This document shows positions 1 to 14,971 of a stretch of 64,000 nucleotides of DNA, one piece after another. Made by a program: the position numbers and the translations under genes. Location: NCBI GenBank assembly GCA_963812605.1, contig CAWEWF010000002.1, forward strand, positions 32,001 through 96,000, in the 5' to 3' direction. The notes under the pieces were generated by a model. It ran no database searches, was not told where the DNA came from, and worked only from the letters and a program-made list of their open reading frames with translations. The DNA comes from an uncultured Verrucomicrobiae bacterium. GTDB lineage: Bacteria > Verrucomicrobiota > Verrucomicrobiia > Palsa-1439. Every line of letters begins with the position of its first letter. The stretch's first letter is position 1.

Positions 1-2536
1 GAGCGATTGACGCAACGACTCAAGACCACCCGCACGGTCGTCGATGAAACCGGTCGGGCCTATGAAGTGGCGAATCGGCGAATCTTCTTTGACTTCACCT
101 TCTCACCACCCAAATCGGTTTCGATTGCGGCCCTGGTCGGTAATGATCCACGCATTGTGGAAGCCCACCACCGTGGCGTGGAAGCGGCGTTGCGGGAACT
201 GGAGCAGTTCGCGGGAACGCGGGTGCATGCGGGAGAACGAATGACCGACCGCACCACCGGGAACATAGTTTGTGCCATCTTCCGGCACGATACGTCGCGG
301 GCGCTTGATCCGCATCTGCACAGCCACTGCATCGTGTTCAACGCCACGCGCGACCCCGTCGAAGGCCGTTGGAAAGCCTTGCAGAATTTCGAGATGCTGC
401 GGGCGCGTAAATACGTGGAGAATGTCTATTACCACGAGTTGGCGCGTGATCTGAAACAATGGGGTTACAACATCGTCAACCATCCGCGCGGTGACTTTGA
501 GATTCAGGGTGTTTCCCCGGAATTGTGCGAACGGTTCTCCAAACGACATCAGGAAATCGATCAGAAGACCCGCGATCTCTTGGCACAGAATCCCGAACTG
601 GCTGGTGGGAACGTCGCCCAGATCCGCGAGAACGTGGCTCAGAAGAACCGAGCGCGGAAACTCAAGAACGTTCCACAGGCAAACGCTCCAGGCACTTTGG
701 GGGAGCCAGGTTACCGAAACTGAGAAAGCAGCGATCTCGGCGTTGCAGCATGGTGCGCTGCTGAAGCCGGATGAGTCGAAAGCGGGCGATGCACTGGCCG
801 CCGTTACCTGGGCGGAGGAGCACCTGTTCGACCGCCGGTCCGTGGTTCTGGAGCACGAGTTATGGCGGCACGCCTTGGAGCACGCGCGCGGTCAAAACAT
901 CACGCTCACGGCTATTCGACAAGCCACGCGTGATCGGGATTACATCCGCGCCGACCGTGGCCCATTTCAAATCACGACCCGGGCGGCGTTGGAACGGGAA
1001 TGGGCCATCGTGTGCCTGGCGAGACACGGGAGTGGTCGGTTCCGCCCGTTCAGCAATCACTTCTCGTCTTCCAAGCGTTGCTCTTGACCCGGACCAGCGG
1101 AGGGCGGCTGAGCATATCCTGGCTTCGCGCGACTTCGTCACCTTGTTTCGCGGCGGGGCCGGCACCGGAAAGAGCTTTACGTTGCGGGAGGTCAAGAATG
1201 GTCTTCGGACAGCCGGGCATTCCCTGCAAGTCCTCGCGCCGCAACGGCAGCAAGTCATTGACCTGGAGCGAGACGGAATGACGGGAGCCCAAACGGTGAG
1301 CGAGTTTCTCACGAAGCAGGACATGCCTCGGGGTGCCGTCATCATGGTGGATGAGGCCGGTCAGATTGGCGCGAAACAGATGCAACGACTGTTGCGTTTC
1401 GTCCGAGATAACCATGGCCGCGTCATCCTCTCCGGCGACACGCGGCAGCACGGCGCCGTCGAGGCATCCGATGCACTTCGGGCCATTGAGAAATACTCCG
1501 GTCTACGAGCGGCAGAACTCCAGGAGATCCGACGACAGGACCCCGCTCGCGCCCGGACCAAAGCGGAGCAAGCACAGATCATCGAGTACAGGCAGGCGGT
1601 GAAGGAAGCATCCGAAGGGAAGTTGGTGGATTCATTTCGCCGTTTGGATCGGCAGGCGCAATTGTGGAGTGTGAGTCCCTCAACCAACAGGAGCGAGCTT
1701 GCGGAGACGTTCCTCGAATTAGCGGAAGGCAACCACTCGGTCGTGGTGGTTTCGCAAACGCGGTCGGAGATCCATCAGGTGAATGACCATGTGCGCTCGG
1801 CCCTGAGATCGCGTGGCAGGATCGGCGCGAACGAGCAGGTAGTGGCGGCGCTTGAACCGGTCGATCTGACGGCAGCGCAGAAACGGGATCGGCGTTTCTA
1901 CGATGAGAACAGCGTGGTGCTCCTGAACCGTAACGCGGGCGGTTTCAGGAAAGGCGAAACGGCACGTCTCGTAGCCATCACCCAGACCGGGTTGGTGCTG
2001 GAAGGTGGAGAGAGAATACGGAGAGTACCCGTTCCGATTCCTGGACCGGTTGACTGTTTGCCAGCCTCGCGAACTCGCGTTGAGCATCGGGCGACCGTCT
2101 GCAACTGAAAGCCAATGGCCGCACCCGGCAGGGCCGTCGTCTGGCCAACGGCGAACTGGTCACAGTGGACAGAGTCCTGAACGGTGGCCGCGTCAGGCTG
2201 CAAGATGGACGCATTCTCGAAAGCGATTACCGGCAGTTCGTGCGGGGCTTTGCCATCACCTCGTATGCGTCGCAAGGCAAGACAGTCGATTACGTCCTGT
2301 TCTCTGATTCGACGATCAAGGCCGCGACCAACCAGCAGCAGTGGTACGTGACGATTTCGCGGGGGCGCAGGGGAATACGGGTTTTCACCAGCGACAAGGA
2401 GCAACTGCGGGAAAACATCTGCCGGTCCGGTGACCGCGAATTGGCCTTGGACATGGCTGGGGCGCTCCGGCAAGGGATGGACGTGGGCGTGAGTATGGAC
2501 AAAGCACAAGGCATCGGACGATCACCTTCCGTTTGA
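1..2536 (+). CDS. MOBF (TrwC/TraI-like) relaxase with C-terminal RecD-like helicase; N-terminus outside window; at least 4 frameshifts
   Basis: TrwC motifs FDFTFSPPKSVS, HDTSRALDPHLHSH (HUH) and RFSKR in 7..723; Walker A GGAGTGKS, VDEAGQ and SGDTRQHGAV in 771..2108; GFAITSYASQGKTVD and YVTISRGR in 2165..2536. Frame changes near 685, 1075, 2025 and 2090. Confidence 0.9.
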
Positions 2537-2544
2537 GGAAACCT

Positions 2545-3012
2545 ATGAAACGAAGCCAAAGTAAAGACGCACCTTCGGGTGACCCGCCGAAAGGGAATTT
2601 TCTCTCGTGGAACAGAGCCGGTCAGCCAAGGTGTCTGCGGGTCGAATTGGCTGACGGCACCTTCTATGTGTTCCCGTACCAACACCTAGCCCACGTGAAA
2701 TTTGAGCCGGGAACCGACGAGACGATCAACATCACCATCTCTAGCCACGAGGTGAAGATCACGGGCAAGAACTTGCGAGAGTTGGCCTTGGCGTTTCAAA
2801 AATTCACGATTGATTGGGTGAAGGAATTGCAGGCCGGGACGCTTCGTTGCGGCTGCCAATGGCGAGGGCGTCCATATTGCCAGCATCGCGGTCACCAAAA
2901 TTCAAGCGTCGCAATGACCGGGTCTATCTTTGCTGATATGCGCCGCAAATTTATCTTTTTTGACTTGCAATTTATGCCCTCCAATCGCTCATATGTACTG
3001 ACTTATACGTGA
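2545..3012 (+). CDS. Small hypothetical protein downstream of relaxase (3' end possibly frameshifted)
   Basis: ATG at 2545 after GAGGAA; protein-like core CLRVELADGTFYVFPYQHLAHVKFE...HEVKITGKNLRELALAFQKFTIDWVKEL. Confidence 0.55.
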   Translation: MKRSQSKDAPSGDPPKGNFLSWNRAGQPRCLRVELADGTFYVFPYQHLAHVKFEPGTDETINITISSHEVKITGKNLRELALAFQKFTIDWVKELQAGTLRCGCQWRGRPYCQHRGHQNSSVAMTGSIFADMRRKFIFFDLQFMPSNRSYVLTYT

Positions 3013-3037
3013 GGGTGGGGAGAAAGGGGGTTGGCGT

Positions 3038-3731
3038 ATGCAAGGCGAGACGCCAGTGAAATTTGAAGGGCCGGGCAAACGGCAAGTCTTGGTCGTCGAT
3101 GATCACACCAGTGTGCGGATGGCACTGCGATTCGTGATTAATGGCGAGCCGGACATGGTCGTTTGCGGTGAGGCTGAGGATGCGCAACCCGCGCTGGCAT
3201 TGGTCGAACAACTGCTGCCCGGACCTCGTGATCGTCGATATTGCTCTGAAATACTCGCACGGGTTGGACCTGCTTCGCGACTTGCACATTCGCTATCCGA
3301 GTATGCGGCTATTCGTCCATTCCGCTCACAACGAAGAGCTGTATGCCCCGTTGTGCTTCGATTGCGGCGCGTACGGGTACATGAACAAGGGCCAGGATAT
3401 ACAGACTATCGTTCACGCCATCCGGACAGTGTTGGATGGGGGAGTATATCTTAGCCCACGGATGTTGCAGTGGTTTACCGGTTGCGCGCTGACCCGCGAA
3501 ACGGTTGAGATGGCACACCCACTTGGTATGCTCAGCCCGCGCGAATTACAGGTTTTCGAGATGTTGGGGCGGGGGCTGGATATCAAGGAGATCGCCGGGC
3601 AACTCTCGCTGGACCACAAGACCGTCGAGCTTTACCGTCAACGCATCAAGACCAAGCTGGGGGTCAACTCGGCGTCCGCAGTGCTTCGTGCTGCTGTTTT
3701 GTGGGACAATTCACCCGCGTCGTCAGACTGA
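3038..3731 (+). CDS. NarL/FixJ-family response regulator (REC + LuxR HTH), frameshift near 3215
   Basis: VLVVDDH...VVCGEAED in 3038 frame; PDLVIVDIAL and LSPRELQVFEMLGRG...IAGQLSLDHKTVELYRQRIKTKLG in 3141 frame. Confidence 0.9.
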
Positions 3732-4112
3732 TGAACCTGCGTCCGATTCTTTAGACCAAGATTACGGACGACCCGCTGGCCGCGGGCGGGTAGCGGCTGT
3801 GGTTTATACCGGCGTCAACAGACCTACTCCTTTGACCTACACGAGAATCTTCCTTTTCCCGTCATGACGGATTTCGTGCGCTGCGGTAGAACAGGCGCAC
3901 GAGATGATCACTGAGACCCTACGGTTGGCAAACCTAACGGCGCAATACGCCGCGCTCGTCATTCTCACGGCTGGAGAACTGGCTCCACTGTCGCCTGCAA
4001 CATGCGGTCGGGAGATGTCCTGTCACCGGGTCGACCAGAAGTCAGTCGATCATCTGAGAACCTTCATGTTTCACCTGAACACGCTTCGTGCGGAAAACGT
4101 TGGCGGCGACAG

Positions 4113-4463
4113 ATGAAGTACCTAAATATGGTGGGGCCTCAGATACGCAAGTTGCGGTATGTGAGGGGGTGGTCGCAGGAGAAGCTCGCGGAGAAACTGC
4201 AGCTACTGGGCTGGGACATCGGCCGCGTGAGCCTGGCCAAGATCGAATCCCGGCTGGTGCACGTGGAAGAATATGAGTTGCTCTTCTTCGCCAGGGCGTT
4301 CAACGTTCGTCTGGACGACCTCTTTCCCCCGATCGATACGGGGCGTCAAATGCGTGACGTAGTAGCAGAGTTGATGCACCGAAGAACGTCCTCAGAAGCT
4401 TCTCTCAAAAAAGTGATTGCGGTTGGAAAGATAGCGAGGGCTCCGCGCCGATGGTCGGATTGA
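4113..4463 (+). CDS. XRE-family HTH transcriptional regulator
   Basis: VGPQIRKLRYVRGWSQEKLAEKLQLLGWDIGRVSLAKIES is a cro/C1-type HTH. Confidence 0.85.
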   Translation: MKYLNMVGPQIRKLRYVRGWSQEKLAEKLQLLGWDIGRVSLAKIESRLVHVEEYELLFFARAFNVRLDDLFPPIDTGRQMRDVVAELMHRRTSSEASLKKVIAVGKIARAPRRWSD

Positions 4464-4497
4464 TGATTTCGGCGGACCAGCCCGCCTTGGAACAAGT

Positions 4498-7400
4498 TTA
4501 TGGCGCGAGACGGATGCGATAAAAGCGTAGTCTGGCGAGTTGGTCGCGCCACCAGTATCTGTCCAGTTAGTGAATACGGCCCCTGACCGGGAAGATGATC
4601 TCCGGGATTAGTATCGCTGAAGTTACCGCTGCCAACCATGCTAGTACCGGGTGCCGCACCACGTCCGTCCGTCCGCCTCCAGCCTGCCAAGCAATAAGCG
4701 TGTTATTCCCATTCCGAGCAAGCGACGTAATACGGAATACTGAGGCCGGATTGGTCGGATTAAGCCCCACCAGATACTTCAGCAGGTTGTTCTGGCCGGT
4801 GCCGTCTGCATCACAAGTAGCGCAGGAAACGCTGTTGGTGTCGGTGCCGCCCCCGCCAAAGTATTGCGCCCGCCACCAATCTGGAATTCCGTCGCCCACA
4901 CTGTCACCTGAATTCTGCGTAACGGAGAAAGTCTGCCGGCGATGGCCAAGGAGCCACTCCGGGCCGTGGTGTTGGAATTGACTGCAACGGCGTAGTTGAC
5001 TGTGCCATTGCCTGTGCCATTGCTGCCCGAGTTGATTGTGATCCAGTTTGTACTGCTGGCGGCCATCCACACACAATTACTTGTCGGGCAGGCCACTGTC
5101 ACATTGCTTACGCCACCAGAAGAGCCAAAGTTGGCAACATTCGGGTCGATGGCGAAGTTGCAGATCAGCGGAGACTGGTTCGTTGTGAGCGAAATGTCGA
5201 CGCGATAGAACTTCTTGGATTGCACAGCGTTAAGGTCAGTTGTAGTGACCTGATTGCCGTTGGTCAGCGGGCCTGCAAGGCCCATGAGTGGCGACCAAGC
5301 GCTGCTTACCAACTCGGTAGTGAATTGCAGGGTGTACGTCGGCCCTATTACCATCGGGCTAAAGATCAAGTTCTTCTGCGCGGGCTGACCGGCAACATTG
5401 ACGATTTGCAAAATGAAGATCGACGCTGGATTCGTCGGGTTGAGTCCAGCCACGTACTTGAACAAGTTGTTTTGGCCCGTGCCATCGGCGTCGCAGGTTG
5501 CACAGGAATGGTTGTTGGTAGTTGTACCGCTGCCGCCAAAATACTGCTGTCGCCAAGAATCGGGTATCCCGTCACCGACACTGTCCACACCCGGGCCAAC
5601 GGGCACGTTGAACGCAAGCAGCATCTTCGAATAGTTCGTTACCGCGCCAACTGCCGCAACTGACTCCACTGAATACTGGAGATATTGTGACGGCGAAAGC
5701 GACACCGTTGGCTCGGAATACACTCCGACACCTGCGGGAACCTGTCCCACCTTGGAATAGCTGCCATATGGCATTACCGCGCGGTAGATGTCATATCGAA
5801 CCACATCGCGGTCGTTGTAGCCGTCGTCCTCCGACAACGCCCACATGATGATGTTCGTGCCGTCTTGACCAAATCGTGCCGCAACCGAGGTCGGCGGAGT
5901 TGGAGGGCTAATTATGGTCGAGACCTCAATTGCTGATGACAGTGGGCTCTCATTCCCCGTTGTGTCGAGTGCACTGACGGCCACGAAGTAGTTTGAGCCG
6001 AGGGTCAGGCCGCGAAGTAGTACATTCGTGCTGCTAACCTGTACTGGTGACGGCATTCCCTCCACGGAGGCGGTTCCATCGTAAGGCGGCCCATTCTGCC
6101 CCGCTTGGTAGTAAACCGGTAGCGGCAAGGTCCGATTGGTATTGGCAGCCCACGACACCCAAATCCGGCTTTGTCCGGGGGATACGGACACACCCGTCGG
6201 CGTGGCCGGTGGCGTGGTGTCAATCAGGTTGATCTCGACACTGCCGGACGCACCTCCCGCAACTGAAGCGAGATTCACCTTTGCGACCGTTCCTCCCGTT
6301 GGCGCTTGCAATAACAAAGTCACCGTTCCGTTGCTGCTGACGACTTGGACGCCCGGGATGTTCGTATCGGCGTTTGCATTCAAAAGTTGAACACCTGTTG
6401 CCGTCGCAGTGAAAAGCCATTGTTGGGTGGCGACAGCGCCCGTGTTCAGCATCAGGTTGCTGACAACCACCGACATCTGGGTAACACCGTCGGCGGGCAA
6501 TGCGTTCGTGCTGGGGATCAATTGCAAATTCCCCGTGAGCAGAGGCGGGGCCACCGCAAACGTGCCAAGGTTTGTGATCGTGGCTGTGACCGTGTTGGAA
6601 ACAGTGTTCACTGTACCGCCGACCAATTGCCAATGATTCGAGCCATCCGGGAGCCAATAAATCTGCAAACTAGTCGGGTCCAGCCCCACAACATCCGCAT
6701 TGCTGTAGGTGATGCTCAGAATCGCAGTTCCATTGAATGTGTTGGTGCTGGCAAACCGATAAATGCCGCCGATGCCGTACACGTAGTTGCTGGCGCCATC
6801 TGGCGGAAGATAAACTCCCTGAGTCCCGCTTTCAGACGCCAACGGACGAAAGCTTAGAAGGCTCGTATTACCGCTGCCTGTCGTCAAGTGGGGCGCCCAT
6901 GACGAAACAACTTGCGCGCCCGAAGCCAAATCGCCAGCAAGGATGTTCAAATCCGCTTGACCAGTCGAGATGATCGTGTTGCCGCCGCTCTGAACACGCG
7001 TTATGAGTTGCTTGAAAGCGTCAAAAATGACGGGTGCTGCGTTGATTTCCCATTGTGATAACAAGTCTGGCCAAGTCACGGATGGGAAATAATTTGTTGT
7101 TATTGCAGGATACGATTCTGTAGGATAATGGGCAACTCCAACAACGGCTCCGCGTTCGACCACTGCTTCAGCACCGCGCTCACACTCTCCATCTACATTC
7201 AAACCAATCTCCGTCAAGTCCACATTTAACCCAAGATCGAATCCGTTGGTGGCAGCGTAAACCGACCGTTCGTAGGTTATAGGACTCCCTGTGTATAGCA
7301 TTTCCCATTTTTCTGTCAGTCCACGTGGATAATTTGGAAGGTCATATTGCTGCCAGTCTCCAAGAAGTCCGGACCAATAGGTTCTAAGTTCGACAAGGCC

Positions 7401-10400
7401 AATTTCCCAGACACTTCTGTACGATAAGGGCTTGTGCCACCTTGTTGGTCCAATTCTTCCAAAGGAGTGACCCACCGTAATTGAGGTTTAAGAAGAAACC
7501 ACCTTGGAATGGCAAGCCAGACGAAGCTGAAACTTGCTGGGCCGTATCCTTTATCTCCGCGGCAATGCCAAGGTCTGCCATCACACTGCATTCTCCTGTC
7601 AATCCAAGGACGGTCGCCGACTCGCCATGCGCAAATGACTTTTTATAGCCAACTATCGCAGCGATATCAGCGAAGCATTCGCTTCAAAGCTGACGGGGGT
7701 ACTTTGACCGCTTGCGTCGAGAAAAGCGACACTTCCAAGAGTGCCTTGAAGATTGCCACCGACTTGAAAATCGCCTTCCACCGATTGGAGGTTTCCAAAA
7801 AACGACGGTTCAATGTTTGTTTTGACATTGTCATAAAACAACCATTCAAAAGCATCCAGTGCACCGCTTTCTGTAATCAGATTCCCTAAATCCAGATACA
7901 GCTTCAGCGCGTTCTCATTTGGATTAGATGAATTCGGGTCTGCAAATAAATATGTAGATTTCAGGGACCGGACCACCGAATAGTCCTGCGCCAGCAGAAA
8001 AGCCTCCACTATGATTAAACGATACGGAACTCGCTTGCAGAGAAGCGCCTACGTCGAAACCTGCGCCGATGCTTACCGTAATCTCGTCAGAGTCGATACG
8101 CGAGATAGACTCATTGTTTGTCGTTAGGCCAACAATATTGTGCCGCACTTCACTTTCAGCAGAGACATTACCTCCGATGCTGACACCCGGGAACCGGCAA
8201 TGGAACATTAACCCCCTCACCCAGTTGATGCCTCCACACCTGATCGTATTGGCGCGCGATAACCTGCGCTTGGAATGATAATGTCTGTTGGACTTGATCC
8301 CCCACGCTGACTGCAGTGTTTGAACCGTACCGACTGCACCCAAGACGGATGAGGGAATGCAAACGCACACTGTTCCAATTCCATCTCCGAAAGAAACGCC
8401 GGCAACTTCGCCCGGCCAAATACTTGAAATGTCGTTTGTCTGAGGGATTGCAGTGCCACCCGCCTGCACCAAAACAGCAATCCCGCCTTGCGGGCCGTTA
8501 GTGGAATTTACAACGCAATAGTAGCGGTACGCCGTGCCGCCTTGTTCAATCGTTGTTATACTTGGATTCACGTCCGGCGATATTCGGATGAGATGATACG
8601 GCCCGCCCGTACCCGTGAGCGGAATATCGCCCACATTTTCGGTTCCGGATGGCACATTCACACCGGTCAACTGCACCAAAGTGTAATCAGCGGCAGAGAC
8701 ATCCACGACATAACCGTTAGCAGCAGGAATATTGGGCAGTGTGAATGTCCCGTCGCCGAGTGTGCTTGTGGCAAAAGGTTTGTTTTTAACCCTCACCTGC
8801 GCGTTAGCCAGTGGTGAGCCGTTGCCCAACACGCGACCAGTGAGCGCGCCTGTTGCGACATTGCGGGTATCAAGTGTAAAGATGGGAGACACTGCTTGTG
8901 CGAAGTTCCCGCCACCGGGTATTGATAGTTGAATACGCATAGTCCGGGACAGTGTATTTGGAAGGTCTAACCCGGCGTTCCAAATCAAATGATAGTTGGA
9001 ACCGGAGCCGACGGCCGTGGTCACACCGTCACCGGTGATGTTGGCCGGCTGCAGGGTGTAGGAAGCTCCGCTGTTGGTGGAAACCGAGGCTGACACAAAC
9101 ACGGAAGCGGTCACCCCACTCAAGTCGTAGTACACATCCACTAAATCTGTGCCGGTGCGCTGTACTGCACGCACCTTAGAGAGAGCAGCGCTGCTGCCAG
9201 CACTCAAGATCGTGTAAGAAAGATTATCGATTGCGAATCCGTCCGGTTCGCTTCCGACAATAGCTATAGTAAAACCCCCGATGGGGACGGGAATAGAGAA
9301 CTCCTCGATTCCAATCTGTGTGTCTGACGCGAGCCAAGTACCACTCCGTTTGTGTCGAACCAAGTGACAACCGTGCTTCCAATCTTATCGAAGTAGCCGG
9401 CATCGAAAGTGACGTTGTAGGCAACCGTTCTGATAGCCGGATCAGATGGCTCTACGAAGATGACAGTAATAGGGCCCTGGAACTGCGGTGATCCGGACAG
9501 CACCGGCGAAGTTGGATCGGAACCGTCTGCAGTGATGAATGCTGGGCCGTTGGTTCCTGATGAAAACAAAACGCCGGAGGACGAGTATTGGTTGCTGATT
9601 AGCGTTCCTACGGGAAACTCACTGAACGTCTCTGTATTGATCGTGTAATTGTCGACACTGGAGCTCGACTCCAGCGCTCGCAATGCTCCCCACGACATTA
9701 GCGCCCGCCATACTCTGGACCACCACATCGTAAATGCCGACTTCATCCGGTTGCACGTTGCTAAGTGTAAGTGTGCTATTCGTGGCTCCGTTGATGTCGG
9801 CACCATCTACCTGCCATTGATATACCAACGGCAATGCGCTTACCGCTGTGACGCTAAAAATCGCAGTTGAACCAATATTCGCATATTGATCTTGGGGCTG
9901 CGTCGTGATCGCGAGAGCGAGGTTTGTCACAATCGTCACATTGTCCATCGCGAAATGCTCGGCGCTCGAACTATCGCCGGGATGGGGTGTGCCTCCGTAG
10001 GAATTGAAATACACCTCATTTACTCCGAGATAATTGAAGTTGATCAGGGTGGGAGCAGTCGCACTCAACGTGTAGAGGTTGGAATATGTCAACGAGGCAT
10101 CTACGAATCCCAACACTTCCACCTGTAAATTGTCACGCCACGCAGCGGTCATGTAAGCGGATACGAAATTAAACGGTTGAGCACTGGTGATACTGCCTGA
10201 ATTCCCTGACCAATTGTAAGCCACGTTGGGCGGAGAAATCGTGGCGGCGGGATAGCCGCTTGGATTGCCCACATTCGTCGCGCCATCCCAGTAGCCGAAA
10301 TTATTCCAATTCAGCCCCTGATAACCGGCCGGTATGTTCAATCCGTTTGTAGTCACCGTCAGATCGTCGAACGTTATTAGGGATGTACTGGAGGTGGGAT

Positions 10401-11328
10401 AAATCGTCAGAACGGCCCCGACACTTGCCGCTGACCCAATATTGTTGCTCACTATTACCGAATACGTCCCTGTGTCAGGCGCGGACACATTGCTTACCGT
10501 AAGAGTGGTCGCGCTAGAGCCGGCAATATTGTCTCCATCCGTTAAGTTGCTTCCGTTCTTCTGCCACTGATAACTCAAGGGGGCCGTGCCGACAGCCGTC
10601 ACTGTGAAGTTTGCGTTCCCTCCAATGGCAGCAGCCTGCCCCACAGGTTCCGTAGAAATGCGTGGATTCAGGTTTGTCACAATCGTCACGTTGTCCATAG
10701 CGAAATGCTCAGCGCTCGAACTATAGCCGAGATGGGGTGTGCCTCCGTAGGAGTTGAAATACACCTCGTCTACTCCGAGATAATTGAAGTTGATCAGGAT
10801 GGGAGCAGTTGCACTCAACGTGTAGACGTTTGAATATGTCAACGAGGTACCTACGAATCCCAACACTTCCACCTGTAAATTGTCACGCCACGCAGCGGTC
10901 ATGTAAGCGGATACGAAATTAAACGGTTGAGCACTGGTGATGCTGCCTGGATTCCCTGACCAATTGTAAGCCACGTTGGGCGGAGAAATCGTGGCGGCGG
11001 GATAGCCGCTTGGATTGCCAGCATTCGTCGCCCCATCCCAGTAGCCGAAATTATTCCAATTCAGTCCCTGATAGCCTGCCGGTACATTCAATCCGGTTGT
11101 AGTGACGGTGAGATTGTCGAAGGTCACAAGCGTCTGTTGTGCGGGAGCGTTAGTTGGTCCGGATACCAATAAGAGAACGAGAGATCCAAGCCAGACGGAG
11201 GTAAGCGGCTTGAGCCAAATCCCCAGCCGACTCGGGGGAGCGCGAAATACATCGGCCATCCCGCCAGTTGTTACGGCCTCGCCTGGCTCTAGCGGACTGC
11301 GGTGCCAATCATAACTACGATCTCGCAT
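4498..11328 (-). CDS. Giant secreted multi-domain surface protein (~2200 aa reconstructed; Ig-like, carboxypeptidase-regulatory-like, FN3, BACON-like, GDGIPDxW repeats), split by several frameshifts
   Basis: Contiguous minus-strand ORFs 9619..11577, 9264..9806, 7924..9363, 7653..8009, 4779..7475 and 4567..5076. Signal-like WLGSLVLLLVSGPTNAPA; Ig motif TAPLSYQWQKNG...DTGTYSVIVSN; FN3 motif GLTLGSNYFVAVSALDTTGNES; final frame reads RFYRIRLAP-stop (TAA at 4498-4500). Start codon uncertain. Confidence 0.75.
9921..11121. repeat. ~450 bp near-identical intragenic direct repeat (9921-10371 and 10671-11121, offset 750)
   Basis: Long identical runs in both copies, e.g. cctgtaaattgtcacgccacgcagcggtcatgtaagcggatacgaaattaaacggttgagcactgg; both encode ...YQGLNWNNFGYWDG...FAMDNVTIVTNL. 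Confidence 0.95.
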
Positions 11329-11525
11329 CTTACCCTCGCCCAGATTCGGGTTGGTTTTCTGTATCAGATTCAGACTCCAAATCCAATCACAATCAGAGAG
11401 GGGAAGAAGGTGTCTGGAGGTATTCATCGAGACGCAAACGTGGGCTGTCAAATGGAGTTTCGTGCAATCGATTTTGTTCCCAAATGGGAACAACTTACCA
11501 GCCGGTGACGAGTACACTCGCGGCA

Positions 11526-11756
11526 ATGTCAGGGAACAACGAAGCAGTGAATACCTCGCCACAGGCACCCGCACCATCGCTGCCGGATTCAGAACGCCTT
11601 GCGTATTCCGTCGAGGAAGCGGCGCAGCTATTAGGTGTGCACTACTTCAGTGTCTACCGGATGATCCAGCGCGGGAAACTTCGCCCCTGCCGTGTGCTGC
11701 GCGGCAAACTACTCGTGCCTCGGTCGGAACTGCTCAAACTCTTGAAGACTGAATGA
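11526..11756 (+). CDS. Excisionase-like HTH_17 DNA-binding protein
   Basis: RLAYSVEEAAQLLGVHYFSVYRMIQRGKL; start may be 11484. Confidence 0.85.
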   Translation: MSGNNEAVNTSPQAPAPSLPDSERLAYSVEEAAQLLGVHYFSVYRMIQRGKLRPCRVLRGKLLVPRSELLKLLKTE

Positions 11757-11775
11757 GGGCACGGAAAGGAGACGC

Positions 11776-12426
11776 ATGATCAAGAGAAATGGCCAACCGC
11801 GACAGGGAGTGGCGCCGCCCTCGTTGAAGCGGATGAGCGACGCGGAGTACGCGGCATATTTCGAGGCATTCGGCGTTATCAAGGGCGATTACCAGGCCCT
11901 CTGTTTGATCGGCGACAAGCTGCGCGAGGTGGAGGCAAGCGCGCGTGGGCTTGGTTCTCTTGATTCTCAAGCTCAGGGTGGGCATGCGGAGTTGCCCGAC
12001 TCGGCAGGCGACCGAAGTCCATGGGAGGTTTGCGCTTCGTTGATGAGGCTGAACAACAACGAAGTTTTCCTCTGCAAGCGAGTTTGCGAGCACGGCTTGG
12101 AATATGCCGTGATTGACCAGGCATCGGTTGCTTCGGCTTACGCCAAGGCGCGTGGACCGCTGGATGTCTTGCGCACGGGAGACAACCCGCGCCAAGTGCT
12201 TCGCGACTACCTTCGCAGCGAAAGCGAGACCCTGCAACTGATGGTCAACGACATCACCGCCAATGTCCGACTGGTCATCGCGGAGCGTTTTCCGAAGCAG
12301 GATTTGCGGCGCGTCGTCAACGAGATCACACGCATGTGCAAGAAAGTCGCCCGCCTCGGTTTCTCCGAAACAATCGAAGAACATGCCTCTCATACGCAGA
12401 ACCAGGCGCGCGGCGTGCGAACCTAA
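11776..12426 (+). CDS. Hypothetical protein (216 aa)
   Basis: Strong RBS AAAGGAGA; operon position between two HTH genes; no family recognised. Confidence 0.7.
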   Translation: MIKRNGQPRQGVAPPSLKRMSDAEYAAYFEAFGVIKGDYQALCLIGDKLREVEASARGLGSLDSQAQGGHAELPDSAGDRSPWEVCASLMRLNNNEVFLCKRVCEHGLEYAVIDQASVASAYAKARGPLDVLRTGDNPRQVLRDYLRSESETLQLMVNDITANVRLVIAERFPKQDLRRVVNEITRMCKKVARLGFSETIEEHASHTQNQARGVRT

Positions 12427-12444
12427 TCTCACCACTGCCCGCTC

Positions 12445-12654
12445 ATGGCGAACGAGAGACAGAAGCGCGAGGTTGACCGGCTGGCGTTGACCCGTGAAGA
12501 GGCCGCAGTCGCTTTGGGCATCAGCATCCCGACATTGCACCGGCTCGTTCAACGCGGACTACTGCGACCCAGTCGCGCACTCCGTCGTCCCCTATTCCCT
12601 GTCCCCGAAATTGCACGATTCCTCCGTGAAACCTCCGGCCCAGTCGAGTTTTAG
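12445..12654 (+). CDS. Second excisionase-like HTH_17 protein
   Basis: RLALTREEAAVALGISIPTLHRLVQRGLLRPSRALRRPLF. Confidence 0.85.
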   Translation: MANERQKREVDRLALTREEAAVALGISIPTLHRLVQRGLLRPSRALRRPLFPVPEIARFLRETSGPVEF

Positions 12655-13061
12655 CGCGCGGAATTGTTGAAACACTAAACGATTTGCGAACCTCGCGGTC
12701 TGAGTTTCCGAAGGTAGCAGCAGGGAAAGATTACGAAACGGCATCTGACCGGAAAGTTCTCTCTATCGGGAGAATTGGCTCCCCACTTTGGACGGTTTGC
12801 GAACCTTGCGGTTTCAACTTCCGTGAGGCGCTGCACTAGTTAAGCCTTTGTTTTGCTAACGTCCAGAGCTCAGACCCGAGGAACCAAAGATGGATACGGC
12901 GACGGGTTAGCTCTTCTTCGTGGGAGTCCCATTGGGATTCACAGTTGTGATGGTCAACTCAAGAATAGACTTGTCGGGTAATGCAAATTGGATTTGTTGA
13001 CCAGAATCGGAGATCCCCGAAAGGAGCATCTCGGTCGTGGAGAAGGCTAAGCGATACCTTC

Positions 13062-13077
13062 TGGCATGGGCTGTGCT
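13062..13077 (+). promoter_or_regulatory. Candidate sigma-54 (-24/-12) promoter for the GAF gene
   Basis: TGGCATGGGCTGTGCT = GG-N10-GC, ~36 nt before the ATG. Confidence 0.45.
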
Positions 13078-13113
13078 CTATATGGGTTACCGCCATCTAT
13101 CAGGAGAAACCAC

Positions 13114-13665
13114 ATGCAAGCACCGCTGCCAGCGAACGAGAACGAACGGCTCAAAGCTCTCTATTGGTATGGAATCCTCGACACGATTGCTGAGGAGATT
13201 TTCGATGACTTGACCCTATTGGCTTCCCAGGTTTGTGATACACCTATTGCGTTGATATCGCTTGTGGACAAGGACCGGCAATGGTTCAAGTCGAAGATCG
13301 GCCTCACTACGGCAGAAACTCCCAGGAGCATTTCGTTTTGCAGCCATGCGATTTTGCAATCCGATGTCTTTGAAGTAAGAGACGCCATGAAAGACGAACG
13401 ATTCGCCGACAGCCCGTTAGTGACGAACGATCCGGGAATCCGTTTTTACGCTGGTGCCCCAATACGAACGGCTGAAGGCTTCGCCCTCGGTTCGTTATGC
13501 GTCATCGATCAAGTGCCTCACGAACTCACCGCAAAGCAGACTGAATCCCTTACGCTCCTAAGTACAATCGTAGCCCGACTGTTCAAACAGCGACGATACA
13601 TCAAAGAGCTGGAGGGTATAGTTTCTGAGAGTGGCGCGACTGAACTTGTCGGGAATTTGCGGTAG
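13114..13665 (+). CDS. Stand-alone GAF-domain protein
   Basis: RBS AGGAGA; PANENERLKAL..ILDT..EEIFDDLT..A..CDTPIALISLVD..RQWFKS...SFCSHAI...IRFYAGAP...LGSLCVID. Confidence 0.9.
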   Translation: MQAPLPANENERLKALYWYGILDTIAEEIFDDLTLLASQVCDTPIALISLVDKDRQWFKSKIGLTTAETPRSISFCSHAILQSDVFEVRDAMKDERFADSPLVTNDPGIRFYAGAPIRTAEGFALGSLCVIDQVPHELTAKQTESLTLLSTIVARLFKQRRYIKELEGIVSESGATELVGNLR

Positions 13666-13847
13666 ATCCCCCATTAGACCTCTGAAAGAAGCGTGTGGAA
13701 AGCACAAAAAAAGGAGTCCCCGCTTTGGACGGTTTGCGAACCTTGCGGTTTGAGCATTTAAGGCCTGCCACAATGGGCAATGCCTTGTTCGCCTAGGCAC
13801 TGAATCATCGTGTTGGCGATGGTGGTAACAATCTGTCCATATCGTGC

Positions 13848-14165
13848 CTAAAGTAATAGAGGAATGCGAGTATCACGGCCACACACACAAGTATCTGCAA
13901 ACTTACGACGCTTAATGTGCCGGTGCGAACGGGCAGACTCCTCGGGCGTCTTCTCGCCATACAGCAACCAGTCCGTGCAAGTCAGACCCAGAATCGCATA
14001 ACTGCCGCCGAGCAAAACGACTCCGATCATGAATATCAAGCCGCTTATCAGTTGATACATGGCGGAGAAAACCAACAACAGGAAGGCGGCAACGTAGCCA
14101 AGCGCGACTGCTTCCTGCGGCTTCAATGGGCCGCTTGGCCTATGCAATGGCCTGAAAATGCTCAT
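13848..14165 (-). CDS. Small membrane protein (two predicted TM helices)
   Basis: 105 aa ORF with two hydrophobic stretches and a basic tail. Confidence 0.5.
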   Translation of the reverse strand: MSIFRPLHRPSGPLKPQEAVALGYVAAFLLLVFSAMYQLISGLIFMIGVVLLGGSYAILGLTCTDWLLYGEKTPEESARSHRHIKRRKFADTCVCGRDTRIPLLL

Positions 14166-14326
14166 CGATATTTTCCGCCTGTCATGTGTTAGGTTTCAGA
14201 AATACTACCTATCACGGTCGCCGTTTTCCACCCATTTCTGCCGTAAGAGAAAATACATCAAGAGCTTATACCTTTGGGATTGGCTTTGACCTTGCCAACA
14301 AAGTGGCACTGCCGAGCCCCAACAGG

Positions 14327-14404
14327 CCCGCACGTAGGATTCGAACCGATCTAGGCCAGCCGACTTGGGAAGTCGCCTGACACAAAGTCTTCAGTACCGC
14401 GCGG
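14327..14404 (-). ncRNA. tRNA-shaped element (degenerate tRNA-Gly(CCC)-like)
   Basis: 78 nt: acceptor CCGCGCG/CGTGCGG, CTGA/TCAG hairpin, CGAC-TTCCCAA-GTCG arm, GGTTCGAATCC; T-stem and D-loop are non-canonical. Confidence 0.4.
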
Positions 14405-14460
14405 TCACGCTTGATTGTTTTTGAACTCCTACAACTTCGTAGATGATCCCGACGAAAAAA

Positions 14461-14486
14461 AGTTGTAACCCTAAGTTGTAACCCTA
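14461..14486. repeat. Tandem 13-mer AGTTGTAACCCTA x2 near the element end
   Basis: Exact tandem copies; inverted partial copy TACAACTT at 14430-14437. Confidence 0.85.
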
Positions 14487-14612
14487 CGACCGATTTTGGG
14501 AGTTTTCGTGATTTCACCTGATAGCAGGCAATCGCCGTGCAACCATTGTAACGATTGGGCTGGCAGGCGATAGCTAAAAATGTGCAAAGGTGGCTAAAAT
14601 GCCCGTTTCGAA

Positions 14613-14650
14613 TTAAAAGGCCGTTGCTCTACCAACTGAGCTACCGGCTC
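14613..14650 (-). tRNA. 5' half of tRNA-Lys(UUU), truncated right after the anticodon loop
   Basis: Minus strand GAGCCGG TA GCTC AGTTGGTA GAGC A ACGGC CTTTTAA, followed by TTCGAAAC instead of the complementary GCCGT; no matching 3' half seen in window. Confidence 0.85.
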
Positions 14651-14691
14651 GCCGGTCACGTGGGAGCCGCGCGGGGAACGGGAGCGGCGCG

Positions 14692-14720
14692 AATGTAGCG
14701 AGTTTGGCGAGCGGCGTCAA
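14692..14720 (-). promoter_or_regulatory. Sigma-70 promoter of the tRNA-Lys gene
   Basis: Minus strand TTGACG-17 nt-TACATT, ~40 nt upstream of tRNA position 1. Confidence 0.7.
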
Positions 14721-14775
14721 CTTTGGGATTCGGGGGCAGTGTCTTAATTTGCCGCGTTGCTCATCGTTCGTGTTT

Positions 14776-14839
14776 TGTAGCCGAAGCGTAAGCTTCGGTG
14801 GTAGCAATGTGGATTCCCGAAGCTTACGCTTCGGCTACA
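14776..14839. repeat. GTAG-type REP doublet (REPIN-like)
   Basis: Perfect 23 bp inverted repeat TGTAGCCGAAGCGTAAGCTTCGG / CCGAAGCTTACGCTTCGGCTACA; each arm is GTAG plus its own hairpin. Confidence 0.75.
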
Positions 14840-14971
14840 GTTGGCGGATGCAAATTAAGACATCACCATTCGGACGGCTGTTGCTTCATAGGGTGGACAA
14901 ACGGGGAAGCCTGGGCCAAAATAAATCGCGGCGCGCCGATGCGGCGGATTGAATTGCACGGACTGAGCGAT

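Follow-up and report, generated by a model that had tools for sequence, protein, structure and literature searches.

A half tRNA-Lys gene beside a conjugative element

The stretch of DNA analyzed here, 64,000 nucleotides of contig C2 from an uncultured Verrucomicrobiae bacterium (in the following termed the window), contains the 5′ half of a tRNA-Lys(UUU) gene, which breaks off after the anticodon loop. This raises the question of what displaced the remainder of the gene and whether the host retains a complete copy. The genome of the window, G000, is a metagenome bin of 15 contigs and 4.17 Mb (90% complete, 2.4% contamination). The evidence presented below makes it very probable that the window displays the far, i.e. 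non-integrase, junction of an integrative and conjugative element (ICE) of at least 53 kb, which resides in the sole detected tRNA-Lys(UUU) gene in the reversed "5′-fragment" polarity. Two features define the host side of the junction:

14613–14650, minus strand: displaced host 5′ half of tRNA-Lys(UUU), positions 1–38
14651–14732, minus strand: ancestral host upstream region of tRNA-Lys, orphaned from the 3′ part of the gene (promoter scan; match in the congener G006)

Read on the minus strand from 14650 to 14613, the half comprises the acceptor arm, the D arm, the 5′ arm of the anticodon stem and the loop CTTTTAA, past which unrelated letters follow (TTCGAAACGGG...). The original prediction, made from the sequence of the window, had described a perfect 38-nt half ending after this loop, and indeed 38 of 38 positions are identical to the first half of an intact gene on contig C14 (C14:6485–6522; 100% identity in the genome search, E 3.7e-13 and 3.9e-15). 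Alignment of the two sites yields exactly 38 identical columns, which begin at tRNA position 1 and end with the loop, and no identity in either flank. The half is the direct-repeat copy of the core of the attachment (att) site. Within the window no complete tRNA was called, either by ARAGORN or by Rfam at its gathering score; at relaxed thresholds the Rfam tRNA model scores the half with 20.9 bits, below the gathering score of 29, as expected because only half a tRNA is present. A second tRNA relic, suggested at 14326–14406 by a weak Rfam match (tRNA-Sec, 16 bits, E 3.6), was probably a chance hit; its T-loop-like word GGTTCGAATCC shares only 11–13 nt with tRNAs of the genome.

A promoter-like site is located in front of the half. 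The promoter scan calls TTGACG-17-TACATT at 14720 to 14692 on the minus strand, which is the strand of the tRNA, in agreement with the intact promoter proposed before. The 82 nt upstream of the half match G006:C13:35911–35991 (86%), which is located directly upstream of an intact tRNA-Lys, and in G006 identical promoter hexamers precede the uninterrupted gene. As judged from these matches, the half and its upstream region are the host's own, moved aside by the element. No terminator-like site was called in the scan around the orphaned promoter, and it is therefore plausible that the promoter, as had been predicted, fires into the element.

To the right of 14650 the window continues with ordinary, housekeeping-like genes, encoding a zinc alcohol dehydrogenase (ADH), a periplasmic binding protein (PBP) and NfeD. 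Next to the orphaned upstream region, at 14734–14867, lies a palindromic hairpin repeat of about 134 bp, of which the genome holds at least nine copies with 93–96% identity and which is also present in congeners. Two further copies are situated just upstream of tRNA-Gly(GCC) (C4:233550–233677) and tRNA-Pro(GGG) (C14:228280–228413), and the repeat may be a MITE-like (miniature inverted-repeat transposable) element favoring the upstream regions of tRNA genes.

The intact tRNA-Lys gene and the neighboring integrase

The 3′ half and the integrase, for both of which the original prediction proposed to search, are found on another contig, C14. ARAGORN calls an intact 76-nt tRNA-Lys(UUU) gene with a normal cloverleaf at C14:6485–6560. 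This is the sole tRNA-Lys among the 65 tRNA genes called in the G000 assembly, so that the additional Lys(UUU) genes considered earlier are not among them. Divergent from the tRNA and starting 93 nt upstream of it is the gene of a tyrosine integrase of 389 amino acids (PF00589, 48.3 bits versus a cut-off of 27.1). In its translation the residues which we take to be the R, K, H-x-x-R, H and Y positions are readable. Comparison with solved structures and NCBIfam gave only distant, generic Xer-like or integron-integrase matches, and the integrase can therefore not be placed in a characterized subfamily. Past the integrase, C14 encodes an HTH_3 protein and a methyltransferase-helicase of 1545 amino acids (C14:65–4702), which runs into the contig start.

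The spacer of 93 nt between integrase and tRNA harbors a conserved A+T-rich stretch, TTGTAATATAAGG, and the sole promoter-like site called in it points towards the integrase and overlaps a repeat described below. As no other tRNA-Lys was detected, the rebuilt gene would have to be expressed from element DNA, which suggests an active promoter within the spacer.

The complete element and the empty site in congeners

In the congener G014 the whole arrangement is preserved on one contig: the 5′ half (C19:11626–11663), preceded by the host upstream region, is followed by 43.7 kb, the integrase and the intact tRNA gene (C19:55335–55410), with half and gene on the same strand. Both ends of the G000 element have counterparts here. 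The far end matches window positions 14654–14457 with 90% identity and the integrase end matches C14:2–6560 with 94% identity, the integrase proteins being 97% identical; furthermore, the block of relaxase and coupling protein is 92% identical to C2:28741–35711. The pairing of integrase and intact tRNA on C14, together with the complete arrangement in G014, bears out the earlier proposal that the gene is rebuilt at the far end from the 5′ half and upstream region of the element.

The same half joined to the same element end occurs in three other congener assemblies (G009, G014 and G016), and the element far end is identical in kind in all three. Five further congeners (G006, G005, G002, G012 and G004) display the empty site, in which a host-type upstream region runs without interruption into an intact tRNA-Lys; searches of these five loci gave no match to the integrase. 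The rebuilt tRNA of G000 is identical to the empty-site tRNA of G006 over 79 nt (100%) and hence indistinguishable from an untouched gene. In every case the 5′ half of the element corresponds to the local host allele, T16 or C16, which may reflect transfer among close hosts or long residence.

A different and smaller kind of element was observed at the same tRNA-Lys site, with an identity block of 41 nt, in G025 (C10:39501–52000) and in G010 (C21). In G025, which belongs to another family of the same order, this element measures 9 kb and carries a 41-nt 5′ fragment of its own host's tRNA-Lys variant. A tblastn search with the G000 integrase found nothing in it; according to Pfam, the integrase of this element is another one and contains a Phage_int_SAM_5 domain. 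The element also encodes an AAA_25 protein and a protein with an ERCC4 domain.

Paired repeats in both arms of the probable attachment site

The far end of the element is conserved and contains short repeats that recur next to the integrase:

14457–14612, minus strand: conserved element end, far arm of the element attachment site (attP), with two 12-mer copies at 14461–14485 (90% identity to the G014 element end)

The exact 12-mer AGTTGTAACCCT is present here in two tandem copies, 128–152 nt inside the far end. A third copy is situated at C14:6406–6417, beside the integrase start and 68–79 nt upstream of the rebuilt tRNA, and is accompanied by a degenerate second copy at 13-nt spacing. All three exact copies share one orientation relative to the tRNA, and the window contains no copy besides the tandem pair. 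An open reading frame (ORF) of 83 amino acids that crosses the repeat sites (14266–14517, minus strand) has no family match and was not treated as a gene.

Paralogous elements of G000 carry repeat pairs of their own at both ends, CAGTATCAAATGG at tRNA-Pro and CATTGCAAC at tRNA-Arg. The paired repeats of both arms are candidate arm-type binding sites of the integrase, and the presence of other repeat words at the same places in the paralogues fits co-variation with the integrase.

Placement upstream of tRNA genes in the integrase family

Displaced 5′ fragments are not restricted to tRNA-Lys. G000 contains seven such fragments of 37–42 nt from six tRNA genes, each starting at position 1 of its tRNA. 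Identity ends 0–2 nt past the anticodon loop in all seven, and each of the six fragments on the same contig as its tRNA lies upstream of it on the same strand. The two fragment types, 5′ and 3′, occur in this genome in about equal numbers. Moreover, four paralogues of the integrase in G000 are placed in the same way, at tRNA-Arg(UCU), tRNA-Pro(UGG), tRNA-Tyr and tRNA-Arg(CCG). The spacer between integrase and tRNA measures 91–93 nt in nine of ten cases and 118 nt in the tenth.

One of these cases is a second, related conjugative element of 67 kb, which is located entirely on contig C6 (C6:99679–166966) at tRNA-Pro(UGG). It is bounded by a 42-nt 5′ fragment (99679–99720) and by the intact gene at 166888; its integrase is read in two frames. 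Its counterpart of the type IV secretion system (T4SS) block at C2:1–1500 is 88% identical and lies 7 kb from the integrase end. Additional short 5′ and 3′ fragments of tRNA-Pro were seen at C6 99140–99311 and 167025–167054. At tRNA-Arg(UCU), C1:137421–179466 consists of stacked islands, with two 5′ fragments of 39–40 nt situated 27.5 and 42 kb upstream (C1:164975–165014 and C1:179428–179466), the outer one being preceded by another integrase-side spacer. Further 5′ fragments belong to tRNA-Arg(CCU) (C1:472840) and to tRNA-Met (C14:262341 and C14:842949); no PF00589 match was found inside the intervals of these three. Among the tRNA genes of C14, about 20 are packed within 6.6 kb (C14:750058–756692).

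Beyond G000, ten loci with relatives of the integrase were obtained from a species collection; their titles are Verrucomicrobi- in all but one case, a delta proteobacterium. Eight of them have a divergent tRNA gene (three Lys, four Met, one Thr) upstream of the integrase, and the other two offer less than 140 nt of upstream sequence. Since some of these loci may share genomes with the G-numbered set, the two sets are not independent. Among 150 further genomes sampled from the phylum, three contained a homologue (E ≤ 1e-40, 35–48% identity), all of them from other genera, and all three exhibit the same arrangement (tRNA-Met, tRNA-Met and tRNA-Arg). Placement of the integrase upstream of, and divergent from, a tRNA gene is consistently found in this clade, in 11 of the 11 loci with enough flanking sequence.

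Gene content of the element

From window position 14612 leftward to C2:1, all called genes are of the mobile-element kind, in line with the element-like DNA noted at the outset, and this part amounts to 46.6 kb on C2. After an assembly gap the element is taken to continue through C14:1–6484 to the integrase, which gives the size of at least 53 kb (46.6 + 6.5). The features within the window are as follows:

1–14612, no strand: window part of the ICE (gene content; both ends homologous to the G014 element)
1–2536, plus strand: MobF/TrwC relaxase-helicase, beginning before the window at C2:31755 (TrwC, 214 bits)
4779–11577, minus strand: cargo of three large ORFs (898, 479 and 652 amino acids) with BACON/fn3, CarboxypepD_reg and Ig-like domains
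11776–12426, plus strand: conserved ORF of 216 amino acids (97% amino acid identity to the G014 element; no Pfam match)
12445–12654, plus strand: excisionase-like helix-turn-helix (HTH) protein of 69 amino acids (PF12728 HTH_17, 32.5 bits versus a cut-off of 27)
12690–14456, no strand: variable insert of 1.77 kb in the element end (gap in the alignment to G014; missing from the G014 element)

The relaxase scores 187.9 bits with MobF (cut-off 100) and 127.8 bits with AAA_30 in its helicase part. The coupling protein matches TrwB_AAD_bind (47.2 bits, cut-off 20.5) and exceeds the cut-offs of TraG-D_C and T4SS-DNA_transf. A VirB4/TraC-like ATPase is indicated by P-loop_TraG (29.2 bits, cut-off 25.8), the TraC and VirB4 models themselves remaining far below their cut-offs. 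In the mating-pair block, within which the contig ends, DUF4141 reaches 39 bits (cut-off 30) and TrbL 23 bits, which is under its cut-off. Other genes of the element on C2 encode a ParA-like protein, HTH regulators and a response regulator, and the region C2:1–28700 carries defence cargo comprising Hachiman HamA (383 bits), Gabija GajA/GajB and HmaA/HmaB/HmaC. The cargo of C2:1–28700 and C14:65–4702 also includes an Abi_C protein, a STAND-like ATPase and the methyltransferase-helicase mentioned above.

Close to the junction, the small HTH protein is kept in all four elements compared. The TIGR01764 excisionase-family domain gives 21 bits, under its cut-off, and the protein is a candidate recombination directionality factor. 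Its gene reads towards the att junction and thus converges with the orphaned host promoter. The 1.77-kb insert holds an ORF with a GAF domain (13066–13665, plus strand, 52.6 bits) and small ORFs without family. The three cargo ORFs at 4779–11577 lack a counterpart in the G014 element, and their stretch exhibits the lowest G+C content of the element (0.47–0.57 versus about 0.58–0.62 on the host side).

Continuity of the element and alternative explanations

Several observations weigh against the interpretation given at the outset. The two junctions of G000 are located on separate contigs, C2 and C14, which makes the continuity of its element a presumption; the sequence connecting C2:1 with C14:1 is absent from a bin of 90% completeness. 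C14:1–4593 is a 4.6-kb repeat, 97.7% identical to the methyltransferase-helicase region of C7, which accounts for the break of the assembly at C14:1. With the queries used, the VirB4/TrbL region and the defence cargo of G000 found no matches in the G014 element. None of the contigs seen in the four sequencing runs examined represents the empty host site (attB) or the joined attP of the G000 strain. For the 93-nt spacer, the scan for promoters gave no sigma-70-like call in the direction of the tRNA, and inspection of ten spacers by eye provided no common −35/−10 pair, so that no specific candidate for an element-borne tRNA promoter was retained. Finally, measured against G014 or the lengths of PADLOC models, several genes of the element are in pieces, namely those of the relaxase, the ParA-like protein, GajA, HmaB and the Hachiman helicase. 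For the relaxase, at least four frame pieces stand against an uninterrupted orthologue of 925 amino acids in G014. The breaks relative to G014 (window 1–3700; C2:28741–35711) are mostly single-base insertions outside homopolymers, and the split genes may reflect either a decaying element or insertion errors in the consensus. The tRNA-Lys element may still be mobile.

Among the alternatives, an origin of the two junctions from two elements, by tandem array or rearrangement, survives best and is still improbable. According to this explanation, the half in the window would mark the outer boundary of an older element, whereas the integrase on C14 would belong to a second one, next to the tRNA. Tandem arrays do exist in G000, as the two 5′ fragments at tRNA-Arg(UCU) demonstrate, the assembly gap leaves room for such an arrangement and the middle cargo of the G014 element differs. 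However, the assembly contains only two copies of the 38-mer, and the two ends, which share the same 12-mer repeat, each have a homologous counterpart at an end of the single G014 element. In the tRNA-Pro element, moreover, the counterpart of C2:1–1500 is positioned 7 kb from the integrase end, which suggests that the missing piece is short. A single element spanning the gap remains the preferred interpretation.

The absence of the 3′ half at the window junction had also given rise to the idea of a reversible switch, in which the integrated element inactivates tRNA-Lys until excision restores it. This is contradicted by the intact gene with its normal cloverleaf at the integrase end and by its complete identity to the empty-site gene of G006. 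Furthermore, with only one tRNA-Lys detected, a cell deprived of it would hardly be viable. The switch is accordingly very unlikely.

An equally slim chance is left to an artefact, either a chimeric join at 14612/14613 or the binning of C2 and C14 from different organisms. The genome is a fragmented metagenome bin with measurable contamination, and none of the public runs checked over window positions 14300–14950 contained more than 0.32 of the sampled words. Nevertheless, contigs assembled from other runs cross 14612/14613: record 26 of X5 (14483–14633) and record 21 of X2 (14491–14621), both with 0 differences, and record 11 of X10 (14491–14735) with 16 differences, the sole contig with at least 31 letters on both sides. 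X10 is an RNA library, but as its record 11 extends into DNA upstream of the predicted promoter, this contig says nothing on promoter use or the transcription start. A loose end in X2 reads into the integrase-side spacer, as the C14 junction itself would give, and the high depth at 14608–14651 is attributed to tRNA-Lys genes of many organisms. The presence of the junction in three other congener assemblies and in contigs of other runs shows that it did not arise in assembly, and the misassembly at 14613 that had been contemplated can be set aside. With respect to binning, G004, G012 and G006 provide the best matches for the host flank of either contig, C2 or C14, which argues against an error.

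Least likely of all is a relic of an old duplication or deletion of the tRNA gene unrelated to site-specific recombination, for which nothing specific speaks, given that the block has exact bounds from position 1 to the end of the loop, adjoins conjugative-element DNA and recurs with the same boundary at six tRNA genes, and that the congeners searched include empty sites and no element-free relative with the half-tRNA relic.

A model for integration

The arrangement of a single element can be rationalized by an attP that would lie directly upstream of the integrase gene and consist of three pieces. The first piece would be the 93-nt spacer, which holds the integrase promoter and paired repeats of the GGGTTACAAC type, the second an exact copy of tRNA positions 1–38, and the third the far arm, which measures about 150 nt and contains two additional repeat copies. 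Recombination with the host tRNA gene would most likely occur inside the 7-nt anticodon loop; the end of the identity block at the last loop base points to strand exchange in this loop, the accepted crossover region of anticodon-centred sites. The element spacer, the 5′ half of the element and the 3′ half of the host would thereby be joined to the intact gene at C14:6485–6560, and the host promoter with its 5′ half (window 14613–14732) would remain behind at the opposite end, oriented into the element. In this way tRNA-Lys stays whole, and its expression would now depend on element DNA. Excision would require the integrase, probably together with the HTH_17 excisionase-like protein, and transfer would be mediated by the MobF relaxase, the coupling protein and the VirB4-type apparatus.

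The stranded promoter might in addition have a regulatory role: transcripts that run from it through the 5′ half and the far attP arm in the direction of the convergent excisionase-like gene could damp excision, and the 93-nt spacer, in which the tRNA gene, the integrase promoter and the arm-type sites come together, could couple tRNA supply with integrase expression. We regard this as an improbable extension of the model. If true, transcription from the stranded promoter, antisense or colliding, would take place only in the integrated state, and the reversed polarity would constitute a built-in sensor of this state and make the host depend on the element, as a trait of the whole Verrucomicrobiota integrase clade.

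Comparison with known systems and significance

In classical elements that use the anticodon loop, a tyrosine recombinase acts at the symmetric anticodon stem-loop, the identity block comprises the 3′ part of the gene and the gene is restored upon integration. Williams reportedly proposed a scheme of sublocations for tRNA-integrating elements in 2002. Compared with the classical elements, the tRNA-Lys element displays mirror polarity, its attP carrying positions 1–38 and an upstream region in place of the loop and the sequence 3′ of it. As a consequence, the integrase is located on the 5′ side of the tRNA and the displaced fragment keeps the host promoter.

Elements of the SXT/R391 family insert at the 5′ end of prfC. 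Insertion at the 5′ end of the target is likewise described for dusA-specific islands. Like the tRNA-Lys element, both supply, as far as described, a new 5′ part and presumably a new promoter to the 5′ end of an essential gene. In contrast to it, their targets are protein-coding, and the integrases are unrelated as far as tested (generic Xer-like matches).

The closest parallel is a class catalogued by Islander. Table 1 of this work lists 159 islands with a 5′ fragment versus 3760 with a 3′ fragment, of 3919 in total (Hudson, Lau and Williams 2015, PMC4383910). The arrangement, which the original prediction had regarded as unusual, is uncommon by this count, yet it belongs to a minority class that had already been recorded. 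As far as described there, the 5′-fragment islands resemble the tRNA-Lys element in their tyrosine integrase, the restoration of the split tRNA gene from the carried fragment, the displaced fragment at the far end, the 5′ fragment upstream of the intact gene, as seen on one contig in G014, and the boundary at the anticodon loop (PMC4383910). The case reported here differs from that class in being a large conjugative element of uncultured Verrucomicrobiia with a fixed integrase-tRNA spacer of about 92 nt. Integration on the upstream side of a tRNA gene is also described for Klebsiella islands of integrase clade I.d, which are found upstream of the arg2 tDNA, unlike other islands there (bioRxiv 10.1101/2020.11.02.365908). 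Compared by description, these differ in phylum and in using a D-loop sublocation instead of the anticodon loop (10.1101/2020.11.02.365908). A non-exhaustive literature search found no paper on the present Verrucomicrobial integrase clade. The mechanism of reversed polarity itself is already known, if uncommon; added here are a conjugative case from Verrucomicrobiia with good support and the finding that its integrase clade behaves consistently.

With this interpretation, the orphan half tRNA is explained and two contigs of a metagenome bin are linked via one element of at least 53 kb with Hachiman, Gabija and Hma genes. Such islands could be overlooked or wrongly delimited by pipelines built on the expectation of 3′ fragments and of an integrase on the downstream side of the tRNA gene. 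The targets of the integrase clade at the 11 informative loci, in all of which the arrangement is found, are tRNA-Lys, tRNA-Met, tRNA-Thr and tRNA-Arg. In the present case, a conjugative element takes over the upstream region of an apparently single-copy, essential tRNA gene.

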